Positions 3,719-24,855 of a stretch of 64,000 nucleotides of DNA are shown here, piece by piece; within the stretch, counting starts at the first letter, position 1; the number at the start of each line of letters is the position of its first letter. Origin of the DNA: Clostridiales bacterium (GTDB lineage Bacteria > Bacillota > Clostridia > TANB77 > SIG350); assembly GCA_015056545.1 (NCBI GenBank), contig SVGE01000001.1, positions 93,906-157,905 of the forward strand, given 5' to 3'. The notes under the pieces were generated by a model. It searched no databases. It was not told the DNA's origin and saw only the letters and a list, made by a program, of their open reading frames with translations. The position numbers and the translations under genes were made by a program.

Positions 3719-4444
3719 TTAACCTTCCTTAGTTTCAAATTTATATCCTACATTCCATATTGTTTTAATTTCCCATTTGTTATTTTTGCTTGCTAGCTTT
3801 TCTCTTAAGTTATTTATATGTACATCAACTGTTCTTGTTCCACCAAAATATTCATATCCCCATACTTTTTCAAGTAATTGGTCTCTACTAAATACTTGAT
3901 TTTTATTAGCAATAAAGAAATGGGCTAATTGCACTTCTTTTGGTTTTAAACCTGTAATAACATTTCCATCAAGAATAACTTCATATTTATCTAAATCTAT
4001 TGAAATATTATCAAATTTAACAGATGTGGCATTTGAACTTGTCTTTTCTTCTTTATTTCCATTACCTTCTTGTCTTCTTATATGTGCATTTACTCTTGCT
4101 AAAACTTCTTTTGGTTCAAATGGTTTAACAATATAGTCATCTGCACCAATATTTAAACCTTCTATTTTATTTTCCATTGTGTCTAATGCAGTAAGCATAA
4201 TTATTGGAACATCTGTAAAATTTCTCATAAGTTTACAAACTTCCCAACCACTTATAACTGGTAACATTATATCTAATAATATTAAATTAGGTTTAAACTC
4301 TTTTGCTTTATCTATTCCACTACTTCCATCATGTGCAAATTCAACCTCATAACCTTCATTCAATAGATATATTTTTAGTATTTCACATATATTTTTATCA
4401 TCATCTATAATTAATATTTTCTTATTAATAATAATCACTTCCAT
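3719..4444 (-). CDS. OmpR-family response regulator
   Basis: Receiver domain (ILIIDDD...LLDIMLP) plus a C-terminal winged helix (VWGYEYFGGTRTVDVHINNLREKL). Confidence 0.85.
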   Translation of the reverse strand: MEVIIINKKILIIDDDKNICEILKIYLLNEGYEVEFAHDGSSGIDKAKEFKPNLILLDIMLPVISGWEVCKLMRNFTDVPIIMLTALDTMENKIEGLNIGADDYIVKPFEPKEVLARVNAHIRRQEGNGNKEEKTSSNATSVKFDNISIDLDKYEVILDGNVITGLKPKEVQLAHFFIANKNQVFSRDQLLEKVWGYEYFGGTRTVDVHINNLREKLASKNNKWEIKTIWNVGYKFETKEG

Positions 4445-19002: not shown

Positions 19003-19335
19003 ATGAAAGGTTATAATGAAAACGAATTACGGGCTTTACTTAAAGACAAAGAAAAACAATTAAAAGAATTAACACAGCAAACCGATGATGTTCTCGAAAC
19101 TTTAAACATGTTAAAACATCCTTCTTCTCCTATGGCGAGTATTCCAAATGAAACAATTAAAAATTTGGAAGAAACTCTTGATATATATGAGAAAAAACGT
19201 GAAAGACTTACTCTTGTTATTAATTGCGTAAAAGATAATCTGCGTAAAATGCACAATGCTAAGATAGAATATGAAAAAATATATAAATCTAATTTTAAAG
19301 ATTCAATGTTTTATCTTAAACAATTTAAAATATAA
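19003..19335 (+). CDS. Small coiled-coil protein (paralog family member A)
   Basis: 110 aa with SD ggagg. All helical heptads; similar architecture to the genes at 19971 and 20300. Confidence 0.55.
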   Translation: MKGYNENELRALLKDKEKQLKELTQQTDDVLETLNMLKHPSSPMASIPNETIKNLEETLDIYEKKRERLTLVINCVKDNLRKMHNAKIEYEKIYKSNFKDSMFYLKQFKI

Positions 19336-19349
19336 AGGAGCAAAGAATC

Positions 19350-19739
19350 ATGTCATTAACACTTACTAACAAAGAGCGTATTGAAAAAGCAAAAAAAATT
19401 CTCGAAAACAATGATTATCTTTTTGCTCTTTCAAAATTTGAACACAAAGAAACTGTTAAATTCGGAAAATTTTTAAGAGATTATTTTATTCAACCACATG
19501 ACAAATCTTTTATCTATGTCGTGTTATCTCCTAAAGAAATAACTAAAATTGAAAAAAACTTCAAAAATAAAATGGGAAATAATTATGTGTATTTTGATAC
19601 AATTATTTGTCCAATTTTAGGAGATAAAGTTTTACACCGTTTTAGGTCTTCAACTTCGACCTGTTTGGTTAAATATTTTATGGATGATGAAAAAAACATT
19701 CACATTTACCAAGAATTGTATAAAGGAGTTTTAAAATGA
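19350..19739 (+). CDS. Hypothetical 129-aa protein
   Basis: SD aaaggag before the ATG. Its stop overlaps the next start (atga at 19736). Confidence 0.5.
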   Translation: MSLTLTNKERIEKAKKILENNDYLFALSKFEHKETVKFGKFLRDYFIQPHDKSFIYVVLSPKEITKIEKNFKNKMGNNYVYFDTIICPILGDKVLHRFRSSTSTCLVKYFMDDEKNIHIYQELYKGVLK

Positions 19740-19984
19740 AAACAGCTGAAATTTCAACATTATCATATTTTTCCGGCGTAAAAACAGCAATGGAAGTATT
19801 GCTTGAATTAGGAGAAATTTATTGTAAAACATTTGAAACAGATAATATTCCATTTGAATTTTTAAAACCTCTTTTTGAAGAAAGTATAAAAAATGCAAAA
19901 GATCGTATTTCTGAATACCCAAATGGTAATGGTCTCTTAAATCAATTAAATAAAAATGGAGGAAAGCTCAATGTTATACAATAA
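19736..19984 (+). CDS. Hypothetical 82-aa protein
   Basis: Translationally coupled to the upstream gene; Gly/Asn-rich C-terminus. Confidence 0.45.
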   Translation: MKTAEISTLSYFSGVKTAMEVLLELGEIYCKTFETDNIPFEFLKPLFEESIKNAKDRISEYPNGNGLLNQLNKNGGKLNVIQ

Positions 19985-20285
19985 AAGCAAGTTAACTCAA
20001 TTACTTGAAAAGAAGAAAAACGAAAAAGAAGAATTGCTTCTTGAAATCAATTCATCTAAAAAGCAAATATATGCAGTTTCTTCTTCTGAGGAAATTGAAG
20101 ATGACTCCATATTTACCGATTTAAGAAAAGCAGAAGAAAAACTTAAAATGGTTAACTTAATAATAACTGAGGGGTCTCTTCAAATAAGAAATGTCGAAAA
20201 TCTTGAAAAAAGAATTTCTGACCTTGAAGAACTTCATACAGACTTATTCAAATCTGCGTATCGTTTACTTAACACAAAAATTTAG
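19971..20285 (+). CDS. Small coiled-coil protein (paralog family member B)
   Basis: Likely start at the ATG at 19971, after the SD ggagga. The C-terminal ...NLEKRISDLEELHTDLFKSAYRLLN resembles the gene at 20300. Confidence 0.5.
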   Translation: MLYNKSKLTQLLEKKKNEKEELLLEINSSKKQIYAVSSSEEIEDDSIFTDLRKAEEKLKMVNLIITEGSLQIRNVENLEKRISDLEELHTDLFKSAYRLLNTKI

Positions 20286-20299
20286 AAAGGATAAATAAT

Positions 20300-20602
20300 A
20301 TGAAAACGATTGAAAAAGAAATACATGCTTTTATCAAGAAAAAGAAAGAAGAAAGAAAAGAACTTTTGGAACAATCAATAAAACTCAATGAACAAATACG
20401 AAATGCAACAAGCAAAGAAGAGTTTGAAAAAGCAAAAGAACGTGTACGTCAAGTAAATTCCGAGATTAATAAGATAACCTTTATAATTGATAATGTTCAG
20501 AAACAACTTAAAAATGTTGATGCAATTAAAGAAAATATAAAAAATCTCGAAACAATTTGTTCAGATATGCTTAGTTCAATTTTTTCTTTATTAAACAAAT
20601 AA
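20300..20602 (+). CDS. Small coiled-coil protein (paralog family member C)
   Basis: 100 aa with SD aaaggata. The C-terminal ...NIKNLETICSDMLSSIFSLLNK parallels the other two family members. Confidence 0.5.
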   Translation: MKTIEKEIHAFIKKKKEERKELLEQSIKLNEQIRNATSKEEFEKAKERVRQVNSEINKITFIIDNVQKQLKNVDAIKENIKNLETICSDMLSSIFSLLNK

Positions 20603-22194: not shown

Positions 22195-22426
22195 TTATTA
22201 CACCTCCTATTAATTTTTCAATGTACAAAGTTTATTCTATTTATATTTATTTATTATATATTAAATTTAAATAAATCTACTTTTACACATATATTGTATA
22301 ATTTAATAATCATAATGTCAAGACAAAAATATGATTAATTATGTAAATTTTTGTAGAAGTATGAGATATATGCTAAACAGCAGTATTTCAACTATTAGAA
22401 TAATATAAAAATAACTATAAAAATTA

Positions 22427-22457
22427 ATTGACAAATAACATAAAACTATTCTATAAT
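22427..22457 (+). promoter_or_regulatory. Candidate promoter for the type III antitoxin-toxin transcript
   Basis: ttgaca (22427-22432), a 19-nt spacer, tataat (22452-22457); the repeats begin 15 nt downstream. Confidence 0.4.
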
Positions 22458-22471
22458 GTATATACTAAAAT

Positions 22472-22590
22472 AAGTTGGGTGACCTCATACCACAGTTGAG
22501 GACTATATAAAGTTGGGTGACCTCATACCACAGTTGAGGACTATATAAAATTTGGTGACCTCATACCACAGTTGAGGACTATAAAAGTTT
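22472..22590 (+). ncRNA. ToxI-like type III antitoxin RNA: 3.3 tandem direct repeats of 38 nt
   Basis: R1 22472-22509 and R2 22510-22547 are identical (aagttgggtgacctcataccacagttgaggactatata). R3 22548-22585 has 3 mismatches, then a partial fourth unit follows. Each unit contains an internal cctca/tgagg stem. Confidence 0.7.
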
Positions 22591-22620
22591 GGATAGCTTT
22601 CAACTTAGCTATCCTTTTAT
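22591..22620 (+). terminator. Terminator hairpin between antitoxin repeats and toxin gene
   Basis: ggatagct-ttcaactt-agctatcc followed by ttttatatt. This matches the terminator separating toxI from toxN in type III TA loci. Confidence 0.65.
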
Positions 22621-22646
22621 ATTATTCAGAAAGGAGGTATAATAAA

Positions 22647-23189
22647 ATGACAAAAAAAGATTTGATTCTAATTAGAGTTGAACCTAAATATATTGATTAT
22701 CTCAGACAATTTGATTCAAATGTACAATTAAATTCTGAACACTTACATAAAGAAAATAAACCATTTGTAGGTATTATCTTCAAAATCAATTTTCTTGATT
22801 ATTTTATTCCCATATCATCTAATAAAAAAGTGAAACTTATTAAAATCTATAATAATTATTTATTAAATAATACAAAACCTATTGATATGTTCTTTATTGA
22901 AGAAATAATTAATAACAAAAGAAGATTACTCTCTGTTCTCAATATAAATAATATGGTTCCTATCCCTGAGATAGCTAAAATATATTTTAATATAAATGAA
23001 GATAAAGACACTTCTTTGCTTCGTAAAGAAATACTATTTTGTAACAATCACAAACAAGATATTTTTAAAAATTCTCTTAGAGTCTATAATTCTGTTATAA
23101 ATCATACTTGGACTTCACTTGAAAGAAGATGTTGCAACTTCAAATTATTAGAAGAAAAATCTATCTTATATCAAAAATCATTTAAATAA
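22647..23189 (+). CDS. ToxN/AbiQ-family type III toxin endoribonuclease
   Basis: SD aggagg 8 nt before the ATG at 22647. The 180-aa product has N-terminal ...PKYIDYLRQFDSNV...KPFVGIIFKI..YFIPISS and C-terminal CNFKLLEEKS segments resembling ToxN (YIEYLKEFDDKV...KAFIGIVLEI..YLAPLTS...CNFSLLEEK). The longer ORF from 22572 is rejected. Confidence 0.7.
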   Translation: MTKKDLILIRVEPKYIDYLRQFDSNVQLNSEHLHKENKPFVGIIFKINFLDYFIPISSNKKVKLIKIYNNYLLNNTKPIDMFFIEEIINNKRRLLSVLNINNMVPIPEIAKIYFNINEDKDTSLLRKEILFCNNHKQDIFKNSLRVYNSVINHTWTSLERRCCNFKLLEEKSILYQKSFK

Positions 23190-23210
23190 ATTCTATTTAT
23201 CTCCAATATA

Positions 23211-23239
23211 TTGATATTTATACTTTTTTGTATTATAAT
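23211..23239 (+). promoter_or_regulatory. Promoter TTGATA-17-TATAAT for the Cys-rich small gene
   Basis: ttgata (23211-23216), a 17-nt spacer, tataat (23234-23239). Confidence 0.5.
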
Positions 23240-23289
23240 CTATCCATAAAAATATTTTACATATTTCAATAAACTATTATTTTGAAAGG

Positions 23290-23517
23290 ATGGATTATAT
23301 GTTTACTTGTGAATTCAAAAAACAATGTATTAAAGATAACAATAATCTTTTGAAACGCATTGAATTACCTAAATGTAATAAAGGTGTGTGTCATTCTGGT
23401 TGTCACAGATACAATTATTATCACACAAAACACTTTAGTCAAAGTTTAACACCTGAAGTATTAACAAAAATAAAAGAAATAGATGAAAACACAACACATA
23501 ATAGTTATTTAGGGTAA
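23290..23517 (+). CDS. Small Cys/His-rich protein (75 aa)
   Basis: SD gaaaggatgg. Five Cys (CEFKKQC...CNKGVCHSGCH) suggest metal binding. It has its own promoter and terminator. Confidence 0.45.
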   Translation: MDYMFTCEFKKQCIKDNNNLLKRIELPKCNKGVCHSGCHRYNYYHTKHFSQSLTPEVLTKIKEIDENTTHNSYLG

Positions 23518-23527
23518 AAAAACATAA

Positions 23528-23560
23528 AAAGGAATCGTATATTTTATATATGATTCCTTT
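23528..23560. terminator. Bidirectional terminator
   Basis: aaaggaatc-gtatattttatatat-gattccttt. Confidence 0.55.
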
Positions 23561-23565
23561 CATCT

Positions 23566-24855
23566 TTATAATTCCTCTACAATAAGCATATTATTTTTTA
23601 TATCAACTACTCTACCTTTTACTATTTCATTGCTTTGCTTATCTGTTTTAATTTTAGTATGTAAATAGTTTAAAGTAAATCCTTTCATATATTCATTATC
23701 TTTTTCTTCAAGTAATACTTCAACTTGTTTTCCTATGTATTTTTTTAAGTGACTAATTTCATTTGTATCACTTAAATTAAGCAATTTATCACTTCTGCTT
23801 GTTTTAATTTGTGGACTTACTTGATTATCCATTCTAGATGCAACAGTTCCCTTTCTAATTGAATATTTGAATACATGCATTTTATTTAAATTAATTTGTT
23901 TTAAAAAGTTATATGTTATTTCAAAATCTTCATCAGTTTCTCCTGGGAAGCCAACTATTATATCTGTTGTTATATTTGCTTCTGGATAATATTCTCTAAT
24001 TATATTAACTATATTTTTTATTTGCTCAGTTGTATATTTTCTATTCATAGTTTTTAATGTTTTATCATTTCCAGACTGAAGCGATAAATGAAAATGTGGA
24101 CAAAATTTATCTAATTTTATTAATCTTTCCATAAATTCTTTTGTTATTATAGTTGGTTCTAATGAACCTAGTCTTATACGCTTTAATCCTTCAATTCTAT
24201 TAATTTTTTCTAATAAATCAATTAATGAAATATCATTATCTAAATCTTTTCCATATGAGCATACATGTATACCAGTTATTACTATTTCTTTATATCCATT
24301 ATTTGCAATACTTTGCATTTCATTTATTGAATCTTCAAATGGTTTACTACGTATTTTCCCTCTTGCATATGGAATAATACAATAACTGCAGTAATTATTG
24401 CATCCATCTTGTACTTTCACAATAGCTCTTGTTTTTTCATAGAATGTAGTTAACTCTTCTGTTTCATATTTATCTTGTTTCATTATATCTGAAACAAATA
24501 TTTTGTCATTTTTATCTTTTAAATATTTTTCAATATACTTTACAATTTGCTTTTTATCTTCATTTCCAAGAATTAAATCAATTTCATCTATTTTTTCAAG
24601 TTCATCTTTTCCAATTTGTGCTAAACAACCAACTGCAACGACTATTCCATTGATATTTTTCTTTTTTGCACTTCTAAGCATTTGTCTAGATTTTCTATCA
24701 CTCATATTTGTTACAGTACAAGTATTTATTACATATATATCTGCTTTATCATTAAAAGAAACTATTTGGTATCCTTTATTTATAAATTGCCCAATCATTA
24801 CATTAGTTTCATATTGATTCACTTTACAACCTAATGTATTAAATGCTACTTTCAT
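23566..24855 (-). CDS. mtaB: tRNA t6A37 methylthiotransferase MtaB (MiaB-like radical SAM with TRAM domain)
   Basis: N-terminal MTTase domain (LGCKVNQYE), radical SAM CNNYCSYC motif and a C-terminal TRAM domain. Confidence 0.8.
   Translation of the reverse strand: MKVAFNTLGCKVNQYETNVMIGQFINKGYQIVSFNDKADIYVINTCTVTNMSDRKSRQMLRSAKKKNINGIVVAVGCLAQIGKDELEKIDEIDLILGNEDKKQIVKYIEKYLKDKNDKIFVSDIMKQDKYETEELTTFYEKTRAIVKVQDGCNNYCSYCIIPYARGKIRSKPFEDSINEMQSIANNGYKEIVITGIHVCSYGKDLDNDISLIDLLEKINRIEGLKRIRLGSLEPTIITKEFMERLIKLDKFCPHFHLSLQSGNDKTLKTMNRKYTTEQIKNIVNIIREYYPEANITTDIIVGFPGETDEDFEITYNFLKQINLNKMHVFKYSIRKGTVASRMDNQVSPQIKTSRSDKLLNLSDTNEISHLKKYIGKQVEVLLEEKDNEYMKGFTLNYLHTKIKTDKQSNEIVKGRVVDIKNNMLIVEEL

Follow-up and report, generated by a model that had tools for sequence, protein, structure and literature searches.

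Type III toxin-antitoxin (TA) loci are recognized by a toxin gene that is preceded by a Rho-independent terminator and an array of tandem repeats (Blower 2012, PMC3401426). Here, we describe a locus with this layout, toxIN, in the genome of an uncultured gut member of the Clostridia (contig SVGE01000001.1). It lies between the genes for RNase Y (rny) and MtaB (mtaB) within a 64-kb stretch of DNA (hereafter the window, to which coordinates refer). A sequence-only reading of the window had proposed a type III ToxN/AbiQ architecture, an assignment now supported by a match to the family profile PF13958, a predicted ToxN fold, and a repeat capable of forming a pseudoknot. From promoter to stop codon, the following features were annotated:

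22428..22457, forward strand: sigma-A/sigma-70-type promoter (12/12 consensus match)
22472..22509, forward strand: ToxI-like antitoxin repeat unit 1, 38 nt (Tandem Repeats Finder, pseudoknot enumeration, covariation, covariance model)
22510..22547, forward strand: ToxI-like antitoxin repeat unit 2, 38 nt, identical to unit 1 (Tandem Repeats Finder, sequence, covariance model)
22548..22584, forward strand: ToxI-like antitoxin repeat unit 3, 37 nt (sequence, pseudoknot enumeration, covariance model)
22585..22590, forward strand: start of a partial fourth unit (AAGTTT; AAGTTTGG from 22585; sequence)
22591..22626, forward strand: intrinsic terminator with U-tract, between antitoxin and toxin (terminator scan, folding energy)
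22632..22637, forward strand: ribosome-binding site AGGAGG, 9 nt 5' of the toxN ATG (sequence)
22647..23189, forward strand: toxN/abiQ-family endoribonuclease toxin gene, 180 aa plus stop, ATG at 22647 (PF13958, PADLOC, PDB, fold)

The promoter combines a -35 TTGACA (22428-22433) and a -10 TATAAT (22452-22457) across an 18-nt spacer, a perfect form of the sigma-A-like element that had been read ahead of the repeats, and tops the 17 promoter-like matches that a promoter scan returned for the region. Transcription is predicted to start near 22464, inside a conserved leader (ATATACTAAAA). Tandem Repeats Finder places the array at 22472-22589 (period 38, 95% matches, score 215). As the sequence-only reading had it, the repeats are identical or nearly so, units 1 and 2 being identical and unit 3 differing by two substitutions (G3A, G6U) and a 1-nt deletion in its 3' tail. 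Its partial fourth unit also stands, but its estimate of 3.3 copies does not, the program giving 3.1. The partial unit AAGTTTGG retains the final A-rich junction AUAAAAGUUU and merges directly with the 5' arm of the terminator, an 8-bp stem (GGATAGCT/AGCTATCC) closed by an 8-nt loop (22591-22614) and followed by an interrupted U-tract, TTTTATATTATT. With a folding energy of -12.3 kcal/mol (z = -4.8; equally good folds in 0/200 shuffles), this hairpin is as strong as had been claimed; the scan found three terminator-like sites where 0.2 were expected. The Shine-Dalgarno sequence and the 180-aa open reading frame (ORF) were likewise read correctly. The terminator is separated from the array by 1 nt and from the ORF by 32 nt, within the usual 1-50 bp (PMC3401426), and array, terminator, and toxin gene follow one another on one strand, as in the layout of Blower 2012. 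The repeat core has no further occurrence across the 64-kb window.

Two alternative starts were considered and rejected. A longer frame beginning at TTG (22572, 205 aa) crosses the last repeat and the terminator; it was discarded because homologues align from the ATG at 22647 and because it lacks a ribosome-binding site. A promoter-like TTTATA-16-TATAAT (22616-22643) was not accepted as a toxN promoter because its transcripts would be without the ribosome-binding site. Upstream, about 100 bp separate the toxI promoter from a divergent promoter-like site for rny (TTGACA-17-TACAAT, minus strand, 22321-22293), and an AT-rich repeat of three 12-nt copies (AACTATAAAAAT, 22390-22424) that is absent from the cassettes of relatives adjoins the toxI -35 element.

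In size, the locus is unremarkable. Across 67 toxIN loci, repeats average 38.1 nt (31-62) in 2.8 copies (1.9-5.6; PMC3401426, Table 2), and toxins average 168 aa (70-288; PMC3401426). With 3.1 copies of 38 nt and a 180-aa toxin, the window locus falls within these ranges and is therefore average for the family. The earlier suggestion that a 38-nt repeat in about three copies hints at a new subfamily is thereby lost; the sub-clade proposed below rests on the divergence of the toxin (at most 35% identity to any sequenced plasmid or phage relative), an argument separate from repeat size.

The toxin and its family

The ORF at 22647-23189 encodes a ToxN/AbiQ toxin by sequence and predicted fold. 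It matches Pfam PF13958 (ToxN_toxin) at 127.4 bits (E=7.5e-37; gathering cut-off 25 bits), covering profile positions 3-156 of 159, and the PADLOC AbiQ model at E=4e-31. A phmmer search of all PDB sequences returned ToxN_Bt (4ATO, E=2.3e-15), AbiQ (4GLK, 4e-12), ToxN_Pa (2XD0, 4.5e-9), and E. coli ToxN (ToxN_Ec; 7D8O, 6e-6), and no other entries. These four were also the sole Foldseek matches in the PDB at E<=0.001 (TM 0.72-0.85) when an AlphaFold2 model of the protein was used as query (31 homologues; predicted local distance difference test 90.4, predicted TM-score 0.86); beyond them, nothing in the PDB fell below E=0.3. Profile search and structure prediction, both proposed earlier as checks on the assignment, thus agree, and the ToxN-like peptide motifs quoted at that time all occur in the translation. 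Nothing pointed to the CptN or TenpN families: PF13958 was the only Pfam family at E<=1, and PDB matches by sequence or fold were to ToxN/AbiQ alone. An identical protein of a Clostridiales metagenome-assembled genome (MAG) is already in NCBI, where it is annotated as 'type III toxin-antitoxin system ToxN/AbiQ family toxin'.

The toxin is full length, with every family-invariant and catalytic residue intact. Lys33, Thr52, Ser53, and Lys55 (ToxN_Pa/ToxN_Ec numbering), for which active-site roles have been described together with a cis-peptide at Gly37 (PMC8860590, PMC5086642), align with K38, S57, S58, and K60, the Thr52 position carrying a conservative change to serine, and Gly37 aligns with G42. 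Tyr29 of ToxN_Pa aligns with His34, which lies in a low-confidence loop. Directly behind the catalytic SSNKK loop, the clade carries an insertion of about 15 residues (in three gaps) relative to ToxN_Bt and about 9 residues relative to most metagenomic relatives; the AlphaFold2 model predicts it to form a helix at residues 62-74 and a longer hairpin.

Close relatives of the toxin are few. A HMMER search over 1.84 billion cluster representatives gave 901 matches at E<=1e-3 and only four at E<=1e-30. Toxins from four metagenomic loci (L003, L007, L008, and L011) are 59-66% identical to the window protein, the closest sequenced plasmid and phage relatives (Clostridium botulinum p1 and phage D-1873) 35%, and the one viral relative found with the clade alignment (L125) 33%. 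In a quick neighbour-joining tree without bootstrap, the window protein branches within the family as part of a separate clade. By sequence, the toxin belongs to a small, uncharacterised ToxN sub-clade. A ToxN-peptide scan of 185,579 species-representative genomes found no relative; the representative of the window species is therefore either absent from this collection or without the locus.

The antitoxin repeats

To characterize the repeat RNA, we enumerated H-type pseudoknots in an unbiased manner over 14 distinct units, drawn from the window locus and from five of its relatives. The same pseudoknot, with a 4-bp helix S1 and a 5-bp helix S2, was recovered in 12 of the 14, so that folding of the repeat, a check suggested before, does yield a predicted pseudoknot. 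In unit 1, S1 is predicted to pair GGUG (22478-22481) with UACC (22488-22491), and S2 to pair CCUCA (22483-22487) with UGAGG (22497-22501); the latter is the internal cctca/tgagg stem of the sequence-only reading and is present in every unit. GGUG stands just 5' of S2 and the UACC strand directly 3' of the 5' strand of S2, which gives the order 6-nt 5' tail, S1 (4 bp), loop L1 (1 nt), S2 (5 bp), loop L3 (5 nt), and 8-nt 3' tail, with both tails single-stranded and A-rich. All three window units retain both helices, and G6U in unit 3 gives a fifth S1 pair.

Covariation supports both helices. In the 14-unit alignment (A1), 91% of the cells pair, as against 34-46% when the partners are slid by one to three columns. 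Double-sided changes occur in four of the nine pairs and are spread over both helices (in S1, for example, U:A is replaced by C:G, and in S2 both C:G by A:U and U:A by C:G); the observed covariation score was reached by 0/500 shuffles. RNAalifold independently predicts S2 (CCTCA/TGAGG) on an alignment of related units. The data support the view that each repeat can form, in silico, an H-type pseudoknot with single-stranded tails. This is the published fold of ToxI_Bt (PMC5086642), and ToxI RNAs have been described with a four-pair S1, a coaxial S2, and single-stranded tails that carry the determinants for binding and cleavage (PMC8860590). Applied to the 34-nt ToxI_Bt repeats of plasmid pAW63, our enumeration rule returns the same layout with slightly different lengths, as it does for the repeats of C. 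botulinum p1 and of two metagenomic loci (L014, L015), while in antiQ from pSRQ900 it detects no more than a weak pseudoknot of 4+3 bp, in a shifted register. The covariance model R1, built from the 38-nt class, scores unit 1, which was in its training set, at 61.4 bits and unit 3 at 55.9 bits; antiQ is the sole known antitoxin that it matches, weakly (15.6 bits, E=0.31).

Every junction between units contains an A-run, with AAAGUU as clade consensus and UAAGUU, AAAGUU, AAAAUU, and AAAGUU in the window. Since characterised ToxN enzymes cut between adenines within A-rich motifs (PMC8860590), processing is predicted to occur within this A-run. The consensus matches none of the three published cleavage motifs, AA|AU, GAA|AU, and AAA|AA (PMC8860590).

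Compared with known systems, ToxIN_Bt from Bacillus thuringiensis pAW63 (4ATO) is the best solved-structure match by sequence and fold (TMt 0.80). It shares a Gram-positive host, the order of promoter, about three tandem repeats, terminator, and toxin, and an RNA that runs from an A-run through UU, GGUG, 1-2 nt, the 5' strand of S2, UACC, and a loop to the 3' strand of S2 and a tail. It differs in many details: its toxin is about 30% identical and lacks the roughly 15 extra residues after the SSNKK loop, its repeat is 34 nt rather than 38 with an S2 of 4 bp rather than 5 and shorter tails, its junction is AAAAAA (cleaved AAA|AA; PMC8860590) rather than AAAGUU, its RNA is found by the Rfam model RF02519 that misses the window repeats, and it is plasmid-borne whereas the window copy is chromosomal. 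AbiQ/antiQ from Lactococcus lactis pSRQ900 (4GLK) resembles the window locus through the PADLOC match, its fold (TMt 0.85, root-mean-square deviation 2.9), 2.8-2.9 upstream repeats followed by a terminator, and a CCAUAGUUGGA stretch in antiQ that recurs in the units of relatives as ...CCAUAGUUGAGGA...; it is unlike it in protein identity (about 29%), repeat length (35 nt), plasmid location, and a proven anti-phage phenotype, which is putative for the window locus. The founding members, ToxIN_Pa from Pectobacterium atrosepticum pECA1039 (2XD0/2XDD) and ToxIN_Ec (7D8O), share the fold (TMt 0.79-0.81), the active-site residues, and the form of the antitoxin, an H-type pseudoknot in which S1 measures 4 bp and the tails are single-stranded (PMC8860590), yet are only 23-24% identical by structural alignment, come from Gram-negative hosts, and cleave at AA|AU or GAA|AU; ToxIN_Pa has 5.5 repeats of 36 nt. 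The predicted toxIN-type locus of C. botulinum plasmid p1 and phage D-1873, the nearest sequenced plasmid or phage relative, has 3.2 repeats of 38-39 nt with the same S1/S2 layout and thus shows that units of 38 nt were already represented in the family. It is uncharacterised, differs in repeat sequence (CAGUG/CACUG, CCUC/GAGG), and lacks the clade-specific insertion.

Relatives and genomic setting

The closest metagenomic relatives share more than the toxin. L003, L007, L008, and L011 have the same cassette of strong promoter, leader, three units of about 38 nt, terminator, and toxN, and the units of these sister loci are predicted to fold into the same pseudoknot, with compensatory changes. 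The relatives' leader starts with ATATACTAAAAG, and L003, L008, and L011 have the leader motif ATATACTA(A/G)AAG in common; the promoter and leader at 22428-22470 align to L003 and L008. The terminator stem GGATAG...CTATCC is conserved, and the terminal junction ATAAAAGTT(T/C)GGATAG recurs in all four. Homology detected by blastn extends from 22428 to about 23178, that is, from promoter to stop codon, with nothing beyond.

What surrounds the cassette differs. The sister loci (L003, L007-type, L008-L010, L011) sit on integrative, conjugative, or plasmid-like elements, L008-L010 being plasmid-like: L007 adjoins MobL, a type IV secretion system coupling protein, and an integrase, L008 and L009 adjoin ParA-like and Rep3 genes, and L003 lies near an integrase. 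In contrast, the window copy sits in the core chromosome. A scan of metagenomes for the repeat pattern found 24 contigs, all with the human-gut L007-type locus and with a ToxN frame downstream wherever sequence exists, the frame of L020 looking disrupted. Repeat copy number among these contigs ranges from one to three, which may be real variation or collapse of repeats during assembly. Among 2.9 million viral contigs the repeat pattern had no occurrence, and there is therefore no sign of phage-borne antitoxin mimics.

Several sister arrays show peculiarities of their own. The toxI leaders of the relatives contain a hairpin, located after the conserved ATATACTAAAAG and ahead of the first repeat (L003 3790-3825, L008 3790-3825, L011 ~1280-1314), and L007 has two (~3770-3828). 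The middle units of L008 (3864-3901) and L011 (~1354-1391) are degenerate and have lost S1 pairing, which suggests that not all units of an array stay functional. The viral relative L125, a 56-kb IMG/VR contig (2650-2745 and 2830-2945), has an array of three ~34-nt repeats upstream of toxN. Just upstream there is another repeat-like stretch, different from the first and followed by a separate terminator, which may be a further antitoxin array or what is left of one.

Within the window, toxIN stands alone among housekeeping genes. Its position between rny (TIGR03319, 747 bits) and mtaB (TIGR01579, 474 bits) is as read earlier, in the gene order rnr, mtaB, [Cys-rich ORF, toxIN], rny, [five small ORFs], frr, two copies of uppS, and cdsA, with rseP, scpB, a pseudouridine synthase gene, and lspA further out. 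The window has 25% GC, from which the cassette is not compositionally distinct. The sequence-only reading had seen a small defence islet here. The neighbours within about 10 kb are housekeeping genes, and in PADLOC the five small ORFs gave only sub-threshold coiled-coil noise and the Cys-rich ORF nothing; a defence islet is therefore not supported.

An identical ToxN in the same rny/mtaB context was found on 23 contigs from different samples, two of which were compared upstream and are identical to the window there. No strain with an empty site was found: contigs with an identical RNase Y all carry toxIN, and the relatives returned by an RNase Y scan of genomes are just 60-70% identical and include no close empty-site genome. 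In three distant Clostridia MAGs, the mtaB-rny gap holds, instead of toxIN, a conserved gene for a protein of 81-85 aa (MSEKI...QQKFEDDLNDFLHIELTWQDF), which hints that toxIN may have been inserted into a variable intergenic spot between mtaB and rny. These gap genes and the ORF next to toxIN are located as follows:

L049, 5582-5827: mtaB-rny gap gene
L076, 5345-5602: mtaB-rny gap gene
L122, 5451-5696: mtaB-rny gap gene
Window, 23299-23517, forward strand: 72-aa Cys/His-rich ORF (C..C..C..CHSGCH..H..H; sequence)

The Cys/His-rich ORF matches only itself in 5.8 billion proteins and is thus an ORFan. It has a near-consensus promoter of its own (TTGATA-17-TATAAT, 23211-23239) and a 15-bp terminator-like hairpin (23528-23560). 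We rejected it as a third component of toxIN, as it lies outside the conserved cassette with its own promoter and terminator; no homologue was found beside related toxins. On the other side of rny, before frr, the five small ORFs (19003-20602, forward strand; 110, 129, 82, 109, and 100 aa) run opposite to nearly all neighbouring genes. The products of 110, 109, and 100 aa are coiled-coil paralogues (blastp E=2e-13 and 2e-4). A Pfam or PADLOC threshold is reached by none of the five, and the block is also present on the other contigs of the window species that were checked.

Proposed mechanism and alternatives

Taken together, the locus is very probably an intact, canonical type III toxIN module and an ordinary member of the ToxIN/AbiQ family. 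Its processing, inhibition, stoichiometry, trigger, toxicity, and any anti-phage phenotype we infer from ToxIN_Pa, ToxIN_Bt, ToxIN_Ec, and AbiQ. In such a scheme, the strong promoter would constitutively transcribe the three tandem units, most transcripts would end at the intrinsic terminator, and a minority would read through into toxN, so that RNA would be made in excess over toxin. ToxN, as a sequence-specific endoribonuclease, would cut the precursor at the A-rich junctions (AAAGUU consensus) into single units, each of which would adopt the H-type pseudoknot and keep single-stranded tails at its 5' and 3' ends. These tails would fill the active-site grooves of neighbouring ToxN monomers and yield a closed, inactive ribonucleoprotein. 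Were transcription of the cassette to stop, because a phage shuts it off or because the element is lost, the supply of labile RNA would not be renewed, and freed ToxN would cut cellular and phage RNAs at A-rich sites, leading to growth arrest or abortive infection.

Some observations weigh against assigning the locus to this family or this role. The pseudoknot score of a single unit is equalled by 1.4% of shuffles, a modest signal for one sequence, and nested folding is not unusually stable (z = 0.24 for one unit, -1.25 for the whole leader), minimum free energy folding of this nested type being uninformative for a pseudoknot. RF02519 (gathering score 50 bits), which detects ToxI_Bt of pAW63 at 59.2 bits and antiQ at 26.8 bits, has no match in the window at E<=1 over 22200-23600 or at E<=10 over 22460-22630. 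As the model represents a repeat of 34 nt, its miss shows sequence divergence rather than absence of ToxI architecture. Conversely, the 38-nt-class model fails to detect ToxI_Bt and also misses the repeats of C. botulinum, L014, and L015. Given these reciprocal misses, it is layout and context that relate the RNAs, no homology between them being detected by sequence. Further, the AAAGUU consensus is not kept at the first window junction, AAUAAGUU, and the window copy (22464-22471) has no counterpart to the relatives' leader hairpin, so that about 8 nt separate the predicted transcription start from unit 1. The neighbours within ~10 kb include no other defence or mobility genes, and ToxIN_Bt has no anti-phage activity in its native host, the trait not being family-wide (PMC5086642).

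It is quite conceivable, without being probable, that the same type III module serves selfish maintenance (addiction or stabilisation) or stress-linked growth control instead of abortive infection. The closest relatives (L003, L007, L008, and L009) are carried by mobile DNA and have genes for partition, replication, and transfer as neighbours, ToxIN_Pa and CptIN stabilise plasmids, the result for ToxIN_Bt points the same way (PMC5086642), and the window copy is alone among housekeeping genes. Yet no mobile element is left around that copy to stabilise, ToxIN_Pa, AbiQ, and TenpIN abort phage infection, as chromosomal copies can too (PMC5086642), and the two roles are not mutually exclusive. By analogy, the mobile relatives suggest maintenance, and family precedent supports both.

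That the cassette has become a remnant through decay or domestication, its toxin inactive or unexpressed and its repeats non-functional, we consider very unlikely. A core-chromosome site without associated mobility genes, the missing leader hairpin, and the atypical first junction would fit such a remnant, and the degenerate middle repeats of L008 and L011 indicate that decay does occur in the clade. Against it stand the full-length ORF with its family-invariant and catalytic residues, the perfect consensus promoter, the three units that keep both helices (two of them identical), and the identity of the protein on 23 contigs from different samples and of the surrounding DNA in the two that were compared. 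Still less credible is a purely cis-acting array, that is, an attenuator or mRNA-leader element for toxN with another factor neutralising the toxin. The array does lie in the 5' leader ahead of a terminator that requires read-through for toxN expression, and it has no Rfam ToxI match. However, no candidate protein antitoxin is conserved beside the relatives' toxins, each context having its own set of downstream genes; in layout, a pseudoknot with tails, the unit matches antitoxins known to bind ToxN directly (PMC8860590), and an A-run of the kind cleaved by ToxN is kept at every junction.

The interpretation as a canonical toxIN module does not overturn current understanding. What it adds is one well-documented chromosomal toxIN locus and a mobile sister family that is common in gut metagenomes; mildly new are the uncharacterised sub-clade, an RNA that escapes RF02519, and a junction outside the three published cleavage motifs. 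It is possible, if rather doubtful, that toxins of the clade cleave with a new specificity, or that their quaternary assembly departs from the triangular heterohexamer (as it does in CptIN), a suggestion prompted by the insertion, the longer pseudoknot unit (5-bp S2, 8-nt 3' tail), the AAAGUU junction, and the unlinked RNA. Standard pipelines leave RNA antitoxins unannotated, and the 38-nt class is invisible to RF02519; the 38-nt alignment with its pseudoknot could seed a new covariance model. With a distinct junction motif and an insertion beside the active site, the clade offers a natural test of co-evolving specificity between ToxN and ToxI. The locus and its relatives portray a type III TA cassette that moves as a minimal promoter-to-stop unit among plasmids, integrative elements, and the core chromosome.

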